Source: a virus (taxonomy: Duplodnaviria; Heunggongvirae; Uroviricota; Caudoviricetes). From it: a DNA stretch of 27,848 nucleotides. Shown piece after piece: positions 1-3,000 of the stretch. Positions within the stretch are counted from its first letter, which is position 1; each line of letters begins with the position of its first letter. The position numbers are program-made. The DNA lies in IMG/VR virus record IMGVR_UViG_2579778666_000022; one strand, written 5' to 3'.

Positions 1-3000
1 ATGAAGGCTGAAATCAGCCGTAGAAGTCTGATGAAAACCTCCGCACTTGGCAGTCTTGCGCTGGCAAGCAGTGCTTTCACTCTGCCATTTTCCCAAATGG
101 TCCGGGCGGCAGAGGCTCCGGTAGAAGAGAAAGCGGTCTGGAGTTCCTGCACCGTTAACTGCGGGAGCCGCTGTCTGTTACGTTTGCATGTGAAAGATGA
201 CACCGTGTACTGGGTGGAGTCTGATACGACAGGTGACGACGTCTACGGTAATCATCAGGTTCGAGCGTGTTTACGCGGGCGCTCTATCCGCCGACGGATG
301 AATCATCCTGATAGGTTGAAATATCCCATGAAGCGCGTCGGCAAGCGCGGTGAAGGTAAATTTGAACGGATAAGTTGGGACGAAGCCCTGGATACCATCA
401 GTGATAATCTTCGGCGGATCCTGAAAGATTACGGCAATGAGGCTGTACATGTCCTGTACGGAACAGGCGTAGATGGCGGAAACATCACCAACTCAAACGT
501 CCCGTACCGTCTGATGAACTCTTGCGGTGGTTTTCTCAGTCGCTATGGCAGCTACAGTACCGCACAGATCAGTGCCGCAATGAGTTATATGTTCGGTGCC
601 AATGATGGCAACAGCCCGGATGATATCGCCAATACGAAACTGGTCGTTATGTTCGGAAATAACCCGGCAGAAACGCGGATGAGCGGCGGTGGTGTCACTT
701 ACTACGTCGAGCAAGCCCGCGAACGTTCAAACGCACGCATGATCGTCATCGATCCACGTTATAACGACACTGCTGCCGGGCGTGAAGATGAATGGCTGCC
801 CATTCGCCCTGGCACCGATGGCGCACTGGCCTGTGCGATTGCCTGGGTACTGATTACTGAAAACATGGTCGATCAGCCATTTCTCGACAAATATTGTGTT
901 GGTTACGATGAAAAAACGCTGCCCGCCAACGCACCACGTAACGCGCATTATAAAGCCTATATTCTGGGCGAAGGGCCTGACGGCATAGCTAAAACGCCGG
1001 AATGGGCAGCAAAAATCACCAGCATCCCGGCAGAAAAAATTATCCAGTTGGCACGAGAGATCGGTTCAGCAAAACCTGCTTATATTTGTCAGGGTTGGGG
1101 GCCACAACGACATTCCAACGGCGAGCAAACATCCCGCGCTATTGCCATGCTTTCCGTTCTCACCGGCAACGTCGGCATAAACGGCGGCAACTCAGGCGTA
1201 CGCGAAGGTAGCTGGGATCTGGGGGTAGAATGGTTCCCGATGCTCGAGAATCCTGTTAAAACGCAGATTTCCGTCTTTACATGGACAGATGCCATCGACC
1301 ATGGTACGGAAATGACCGCGACCCGTGATGGTGTTCGTGGAAAAGAAAAACTGGATGTCCCCATCAAGTTTTTATGGTGCTACGCCAGTAACACATTGAT
1401 CAATCAACATGGCGACATCAATCACACCCATGAGGTGCTTCAGGATGACAGCAAGTGCGAGATGATTGTTGGCATTGACCACTTCATGACGGCCTCGGCT
1501 AAGTATTGCGATATCCTGTTGCCCGACCTGATGCCAACAGAGCAAGAAGACCTTATCTCTCATGAATCTGCAGGGAATATGGGCTATGTGATCCTCGCCC
1601 AACCCGCAACCTCAGCAAAATTTGAACGCAAACCCATCTACTGGATGCTGAGTGAAGTCGCCAAACGCTTAGGACCAGACGTTTATCAAACCTTTACTGA
1701 AGGTCGCAGTCAGCATGAATGGATCAAATATCTCCATGCGAAAACGAAGGAACGTAACCCTGAGATGCCCGACTACGAGGAGATGAAAACGACCGGGATC
1801 TTTAAGAAAAAATGCCCGGAAGAACACTACGTCGCTTTCCGCGCATTCCGTGAAGATCCACAGGCAAACCCGTTGAAAACACCTTCGGGGAAAATCGAAA
1901 TTTATTCTGAACGACTGGCGAAGATTGCAGATACCTGGGAATTGAAAAAAGATGAAATTATTCATCCCCTTCCTGCGTATACCCCAGGTTTTGATGGCTG
2001 GGACGATCCCCTGCGGAAAACCTATCCACTGCAGTTAACGGGCTTCCATTACAAAGCGCGTACCCACTCCAGCTACGGCAATATTGATGTGTTACAGCAG
2101 GCCTGCCCACAAGAGGTGTGGATCAACCCCATTGATGCTCAGGCACGCGGTATCCGTCATGGCGATACCGTGCGGGTATTTAACAATAATGGAGAAATGC
2201 TGATTGCCGCAAAAGTGACTCCGCGTATTCTGCCTGGCGTTACCGCCATCGGGCAAGGTGCGTGGCTTAAAGCGGATATGTTTGGTGACCGGGTCGATCA
2301 CGGCGGCAGTATCAATATTCTGACCTCTCACCGCCCTTCACCGCTGGCAAAGGGAAACCCGTCGCACAGCAATCTTGTCCAGATCGAAAAGGTTTAAGGA
2401 GTAGCCCATGACCACACAATATGGATTTTTTATCGATTCCAGCCGCTGTACTGGCTGTAAAACCTGCGAACTGGCGTGCAAAGATTTTAAAGTTGGTTAC
2501 GTATCGTTTAAAATCAATTAGATAGCCCGTCATTTCTGCGCTCACACGTCCCAACATTGAAAAACATGCAAAGCTTTGTAAGCCGATGCAAAGCTTTGTG
2601 TGTCTCACTTTTGTCCCAATACCAATCCGAATCCACCCTTTGTCATCATTGAGAAATGGCAAGGAAGAAAAGGATGTTACTGCACGATTTGACAAATCCG
2701 CCAGAGCTATCGCATACTGATCGCACTGAACAAATAAGCGGTCTCCGCACCCGATAGCTTTGCGGCTTTTTTATGCCTGCAATTTGGCATAGTTACATCC
2801 GTACAAAGGTCGGGTGGAGAGGCGTAATACAACACCCGCAAGGGGAATATGCCCAGAGCTTCTTATTTGGCTCAGTTGACACCCGACCGCCAGCTACTAA
2901 CTGGCGGTTATAAACTAAACAAATAAGGAGGTCATCATGACCAGTCAACTCATCCCCGTATTCAACGGTTCTATCTCAAACCAAGCAGCCCTTCTATGCA

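Follow-up and report, generated by a model that had tools for sequence, protein, structure and literature searches.

A prophage/host junction within ynfG of Escherichia coli and the 7-bp core it shares with the reciprocal junction

Positions 2486-2492 of the analyzed DNA (hereafter the window, i.e., the whole 27,848-nucleotide stretch of the IMG/VR virus record IMGVR_UViG_2579778666_000022) are the integrase-distal prophage/host junction, attR in lambda nomenclature, of a prophage inserted in ynfG of Escherichia coli. The most probable origin of this junction (probability roughly 0.95) is recombination between the attP of a 933W-like temperate phage, which carries a POC-J13-type tyrosine integrase, and an attB located in ynfG codons 27-29. 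Strand exchange would occur inside a 7-bp overlap, TTTAAAG, and would split ynfG into a 28-codon 5' piece extended by nine phage codons, which is kept behind ynfEF, and a 177-codon 3' piece lying about 62 kb off behind the integrase gene, with ynfH and dmsD next to it. The ynfG attachment site is already published and experimentally supported, and the event is ordinary and well documented; the additions made here are modest, namely the 7-bp core with its flanking symmetry, a 196-bp integrase-specific arm, and a set of relatives with tRNA cores that share the arms but not the core.

The two junctions and their common core

The window starts 27 nt into the RefSeq coding sequence of ynfF, the catalytic subunit gene of a selenate/tellurate reductase, which occupies 1..2397 on the plus strand according to the ORF list and the RefSeq annotation of the identical stretch in E. 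coli G6/7. The end of ynfF is followed by a 10-nt spacer containing AAGGAG and by the ATG of ynfG at 2408, an arrangement identical to that of K-12. The initial annotation had described about 28 intact ynfG codons at normal spacing behind ynfF, followed past about 2492 by a frame reading VGYVSFKIN and a stop, and had interpreted this as integration within the ynfG coding sequence. Comparison with K-12 bore out the description, as the spacer and codons 1-28 (2408-2491) are identical to K-12 and the translation of 2408-2530 gives MTTQYGFFIDSSRCTGCKTCELACKDFK followed by VGYVSFKIN and a stop codon at 2519-2521. The resulting hybrid ORF (2408..2521, plus strand), which consists of ynfG codons 1-28, nine phage codons and TAA, is named '4Fe-4S binding protein, incomplete' by PGAP. 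A three-way alignment, with coordinates confirmed by script, placed the breakpoint precisely: ynfG of K-12 MG1655 matches the window base for base through TTTAAAG (2486-2492), and the two sequences are unrelated from exactly 2493 onward.

The other junction, which had been assumed to lie outside the window, was found in E. coli G6/7 (NZ_CP060061.1), whose sequence is 100% identical to window positions 2000-3300 and hence across the junction region. The phage DNA of G6/7 is about 62 kb long and terminates in the gene for a 387-aa integrase, which is a tyrosine recombinase (Pfam Phage_integrase, 1.5e-45); about 50 bp separate the int stop codon from CTTTAAAGATCTTGG..., i.e., ynfG from codon 27 onward, behind which come ynfH and dmsD. 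The rest of ynfG is therefore found about 62 kb away, and the short direct repeat is the 7-bp TTTAAAG, the sole block common to the K-12 attB, the window junction and the int-side junction of G6/7. The alignment shows that no host base was lost at the integration site and that none was duplicated or gained beyond TTTAAAG. On the left of the core, the sequence is host-type in the window junction and phage-type in the other junction, and the reverse applies on the right, which places the exchange within the 7 bp; the overlap region of lambda-family integrases is also 7 bp long. Thus, integration within the coding sequence, as first proposed, was corroborated by both junctions with their shared short core, by a tyrosine integrase gene beside one of them (in the relative G6/7, the window itself being without an integrase), and by the uninterrupted, empty site in other strains of the species.

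The common core (2486..2492) is the putative strand-exchange (overlap) region, and the cleavage-site positions are likewise putative. As read from the sequence, the core in attB is flanked by the 5-bp inverted repeats AAGAT/ATCTT, and in the reconstructed attP it lies inside the palindrome CAACTTTAAAGTTG. The attP was reconstructed from the two junctions because the database records are all linearized at the att site, so that no contiguous attP of the exact phage was recovered, and because 25 nt are missing at this site from the record of Escherichia phage PhiR5_2. That 'complete genome' record was opened at att and is without the 25 nt ACTTTAAAGTTGGTTACGTATCGTT compared with the reconstructed attP, which is probably a trimming artefact. 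The attB sequence is expected to carry AAGATTTTAAAGATCTT and the attP sequence CAACTTTAAAGTTGG, whereas the int-ynfG' junction of the source genome is expected to read ...GGTGAGCAACAACTTTAAAGATCTTGGCCCGG..., about 60 kb downstream; since the second junction and the integrase lie beyond the window and the best complete genome is about 97% identical in the prophage part, this far end in the source strain is deduced from relatives.

The frequency of the insertion was assessed in a collection of 5,426 complete E. coli genomes, 5,326 of which were matched by a 406-nt K-12 query spanning attB. The presence of the same window-type junction in 82 genomes, together with an intact attB in 5,230 of the 5,326 matching genomes, argues that the junction did not arise by chance. 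The int-ynfG' junction was found in 89 genomes, and a prophage of this integrase type resides in ynfG in about 1.6% of complete genomes. None of the complete E. coli genomes was identical to the whole window, the best being about 97% identical over 92-94% of the phage part, so that the collection does not include the source strain.

Phage identity and the architecture of attP

The prophage part of the window (2493..27848, about 25.4 kb) is of the 933W-like short-tailed type, as judged from phage identity, annotation and Pfam, and runs on past the window. The integrase is 100% identical to that of PhiR5_2 (PV340546) and 99.5-99.7% identical to those of the Shigella phages POCJ13 and 75/02 Stx and of phiSTEC1589-Stx1c. 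Window positions 2493-27400 show 96.8% identity to PhiR5_2 over 91%, and 72-73% of the phage part aligns at 90-91% identity with POCJ13, with 75/02 and with many Stx phages of the 933W-like type; for POCJ13 and 75/02, this identity applies to the late and accessory region that they share with the window. PhiR5_2 also has the window's gene order of truncated ant, ant, ibrA and ibrB; however, its record is a phage genome with K-12 MG1655 listed as host and not a lysogen junction. POC-J13 (KJ603229) and 75/02 Stx (KF766125), with integrases 99.7% identical to that of the window type, share its integration site, and the phage end of both coincides with window position 2493, which corresponds to the last base of POCJ13. 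By integrase type and attP arm, the window prophage would belong to the POC-J13/75/02 group. Both of these phages are Stx1a-converting, whereas the Q-stx region of the window's prophage, where stx1a would be expected between Q and the lysis genes, lies outside the window and the closest genome, G6/7, is without an annotated stx; the window prophage in turn differs in carrying ibrAB and a YadA-anchor protein.

The attachment site of this group has been documented in several studies. Gray et al. (2014) located POC-J13 in the S. flexneri locus S1742, and in their lysogeny experiments with MG1655 the phage inserted in ynfG; experimental integration at this site was reported for MG1655 and S. flexneri 2457T (PMC4193171). 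The 75/02 Stx phage has the same integration site as POC-J13 (PMC5447701), and the Stx1a prophage of E. coli O113:H4 RM10410 was listed as 'ynfG-(1,803,652-1,866,151)-ynfG' with a size of 62.5 kb (PMC10562709). The RM10410 prophage has the same junction as the window (hit H22, 95.9% over the full 1301-nt query), but it carries stx1a and its phage side is about 4% divergent. Exact matches to the published primers S1742_up and Stx_phage_up lie at window positions 2168-2192 and 3311-3329, respectively, and the predicted junction-PCR product is 1162 bp compared with the published 1,155 bp.

Alignment start points delimit the phage arm at this junction. POCJ13 and 75/02 align from 2493, whereas 933W-like phages outside six records with integrases at least 99% identical align only from 2689; hence, 2493..2688 represents a 196-bp integrase-specific arm, i.e., the integrase-distal attP arm, equivalent to the P arm of lambda. 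The contiguous attPs of six phages with integrases 72-87% identical to that of the ynfG phage (2G7b, SEN22, epsilon34, SfIV, an Enterobacter phage and a Proteus phage) served as a comparison set, and both arms were found to be conserved between the ynfG phage and these six relatives. The conserved element of the proximal arm is a tandem GTCCCAAAT(A/T)TGTCCCA inside the 3' end of int, and that of the distal arm is GCGCTCACACGTCCCA ... TTTTGTCCCA, at window positions 2538-2618. The GTCCCA motif occurs at four positions, two per arm, which are kept across all seven attPs, and conservation of position suggests that the four motifs are candidate arm-type integrase sites; those in the distal arm are CGTCCCAAC (2547..2555) and TGTCCCAAT (2612..2620), both on the plus strand.

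It is the center of attP that sets the ynfG phage apart. All six relatives have a tRNA 3' end in the central region of about 75 bp, whereas the ynfG phage has unrelated sequence around its palindrome. In epsilon34, SfIV, SEN22 and 2G7b, the tRNA 3' end is the attP core (a 44-nt argU-like site is annotated in epsilon34), so that the target is restored upon integration; in contrast, the ynfG phage, which has kept the arms of these phages including the four GTCCCA motifs and the central hairpin region, has a core that matches its protein-coding target over 7 bp only, so that the target gene is sacrificed. The lambda Int/attP/attB system combines a 7-bp overlap with arm-type and core-type sites. 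The ynfG phage resembles it in the 7-bp identity block with inverted repeats in attB, in the repeated motifs of both arms, and in an int gene that adjoins one arm and is transcribed towards the core; however, lambda integrates between gal and bio without disrupting a gene, and the binding sites of the ynfG phage are predicted solely from conservation.

A 17-bp perfect hairpin (2564..2603, plus strand), formed from two direct 14-mers ATGCAAAGCTTTGT (2566-2579 and 2586-2599), was detected by the terminator scan and the repeat search between the two distal GTCCCA motifs, with an RNA fold of -22.7 kcal/mol (z = -5.1). In the free phage, the hairpin may terminate or retroregulate the int transcript; in the lysogen, it lies directly downstream of the ynfF-ynfG' transcript. 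The epsilon34 record has a possible int terminator in the corresponding arm, about 140-160 bp past the int stop. When covariation was sought in the attPs of the six relatives, the consensus structure was weak, at -3.2 kcal/mol, and had pairs that the two divergent sequences do not keep; a conserved RNA structure is therefore not claimed. In the integrase-proximal region, the 14-mer had no match with up to three mismatches allowed and the 8-mer ATGCAAAG alone recurs, and the 14-mer was rejected as a shared arm site.

Fate of ynfG and expression of ynfH and dmsD

YnfG contains 16 Cys residues in four groups; within a single dicluster domain, Pfam pairs residues 67-84 with a cluster-binding motif located at 12-25. 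The 28-codon fragment holds C14, C17, C20 and C24, i.e., the first CxxCxxCxxxC motif (residues 14-24), and the remaining three are on the remnant. Translation of the phage arm that precedes the remnant gives ...SSRFQVVSNNFK, which is free of Cys, and no functional phage-borne replacement of the displaced segment was found. Since the first motif is parted from the other three groups and the phage offers no substitute, ynfG is probably inactivated, in agreement with the initial annotation; the predicted loss of YnfG function relies on the known role of the Cys groups in DmsB-type subunits. YnfG has been described as linking YnfE to YnfH in electron transfer (PMC5203670).

It is very improbable that integration is silent, with the phage supplying a substitute for the displaced part of ynfG and the ynf operon still working. 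An imperfect likeness does exist between the integrase-proximal arm and ynfG (CTTTCAAGTGGTGAGCAACAACTTTAAAG versus CTGCGAACTGGCGTGCAAAGATTTTAAAG), a GTG-initiated hybrid ORF of 184 aa reaches into the ynfG remnant (PGAP has a 183-aa intact CDS in E. coli SCU-104), and int is co-oriented with ynfG'-ynfH-dmsD, with no terminator predicted between the int stop and the ynfG remnant or core. However, the phage-derived codons VVSNNFK supply no counterpart to any of the four Cys in the first CxxCxxCxxxC motif, the sequence upstream of the GTG contains no evident Shine-Dalgarno element, and the identity to attB is limited to 7 bp, whereas the relatives carry a tRNA 3' end, with a 44-nt attP site in epsilon34.

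The annotation of the remnant itself is inconsistent. In SCU-104 (L008 1895-2446, equivalent to L003 2741-3295), it is annotated as an intact protein of 183 aa, WP_000069315.1, under the PGAP name 'DMSO/selenate family reductase complex B subunit', with a start 41 nt past the int stop, in phage-derived DNA, which is the second GTG (L003 2744); the same DNA is a pseudogene in G6/7. The 183/184-aa hybrid ORF annotation is a pitfall and not evidence of function.

Site-specific integration also has to be weighed against an origin of the junction by illegitimate recombination, deletion or rearrangement between prophages, as E. coli contains many related lambdoid prophages that recombine and the window region has dozens of matching places in each genome. 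The reciprocal junction is precise, with the same 7-bp core and all host bases kept, Shigella phages isolated independently share the breakpoint with 82-89 genomes, the experimental POC-J13 lysogeny goes to ynfG (PMC4193171), and a conserved attP arm makes up the junction's phage side; together, precision, recurrence and published lysogeny practically exclude a non-integrase origin. A mere allelic variant or a continuous full-length ynfG with an intact downstream frame, for which nothing speaks beyond the intact first 28 codons, was ruled out by the stop at 2519-2521, by the lack of ynfG similarity past 2492 and by the 97% identity of the downstream DNA to a sequenced phage.

Upon integration by the ynfG phage, ynfH and dmsD come to lie about 62 kb from the ynfE promoter, and their expression in the lysogen may be reduced or lost, as the initial annotation had proposed; however, int is transcribed towards them. 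In scans of the regions around the two junctions, promoter-like matches were no more numerous than expected by chance, with no sign of an independent dmsD promoter, and the literature found for such a promoter comprised only descriptions of a ynfEFGH-dmsD operon. Near the window junction, three terminator-like matches were within chance; the region L003 2500-4900 had nine, above its shuffles (mean 3.0, sd 1.8), located inside ynfG', ynfH and dmsD. DmsD is required for the maturation of DmsABC (PMC12096835).

Prophage genes behind the junction and significance of the insertion

The first phage genes behind the arm form a tandem duplicated unit on the ynfF strand, in which an sRNA-Xcc1 family RNA (Rfam RF02221) lies about 40 nt upstream of each ant ORF. 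RNA copy 1 (2808..2896, plus strand; 69.1 bits versus a gathering score of 53) is upstream of a truncated AntA-family antirepressor gene of 94 aa (2937..3221, plus strand; Pfam AntA 1.8e-25; PGAP 'missing C-terminus'), and copy 2 (3345..3430, plus strand; 73.4 bits) is upstream of a full-length AntA/P22_AR_C antirepressor gene of 209 aa (3471..4100, plus strand; Pfam and RefSeq annotation). Promoter-like hexamers (2689-2718 and 3199-3228) and a short hairpin with a T-run were observed upstream in each unit. In APSE phages, the same RNA family is located upstream of an ORF6N-domain gene (PMC7313666), and by analogy with this arrangement sRNA-Xcc1 may regulate antirepressor-type genes in cis or trans. 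The first ant ends after ...AKELAMV, a truncation common to PhiR5_2; in many other genomes the region matches in two pieces and is about 430 bp longer, with two antA/AntB-family genes annotated, which suggests that the window lineage has lost part of its first ant copy by deletion.

Integration puts the co-oriented ant module directly downstream of the ynfEF transcription unit, which is induced anaerobically, with only the non-canonical hairpin at 2564-2603 between them. It is conceivable, albeit improbable, that read-through from the ynfE promoter leads to antirepressor expression and couples prophage induction to gut anaerobiosis; if true, such coupling would also influence toxin release in the Stx1-carrying relatives. 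In the opposite direction, and equally improbable, read-through from int could sustain ynfH and dmsD expression.

Behind the ant genes, ibrA (PAPS_reduct and DUF3440 domains) and ibrB (together 4297-6152, plus strand) are followed on the opposite strand by a SocA/Panacea gene, a 2787-aa polyvalent protein ORF with LPD38, LPD5, LPD1 and MuF_C domains (6916-15279, minus strand), hok, lom, tail genes and a gene for a 373-aa protein with a YadA anchor (24510-25631, minus strand), according to annotation and Pfam. The presence of ibrA/ibrB and a YadA-anchor protein on one prophage is reminiscent of the Eib immunoglobulin-binding prophages of ECOR-9, and four ECOR-9 phage records were among the matches of the window's phage part. 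The polyvalent protein ORF, typical of the 933W-like morphogenesis region, is two codons shorter than its G6/7 counterpart. The 46-aa Hok/Gef family toxin ORF (18540-18680, minus strand) adjoins lom, and no Sok-type RNA was detected at the Rfam gathering score. A 208-aa ORF (19777-20403, minus strand) is intact in the window, whereas an IS1A insertion has split its G6/7 counterpart into pseudogene fragments of 255 bp and 372 bp. The terminase and replication genes of G6/7 are frameshifted as well; its prophage therefore looks defective, and no such damage was seen in the window copy.

The importance of the junction is mostly a matter of annotation and bookkeeping. It marks a lysogen of the ynfG-integrating group, which includes Stx1a phages of Shigella flexneri, Shigella sonnei and E. 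coli O113:H4, and the published junction PCR would call the strain positive with or without stx. For the host, the insertion would remove the electron-transfer subunit of the YnfEFGH selenate/tellurate reductase and would part dmsD, a chaperone gene required for DmsABC, from the operon promoter, and lysogens may thus differ in anaerobic respiration.
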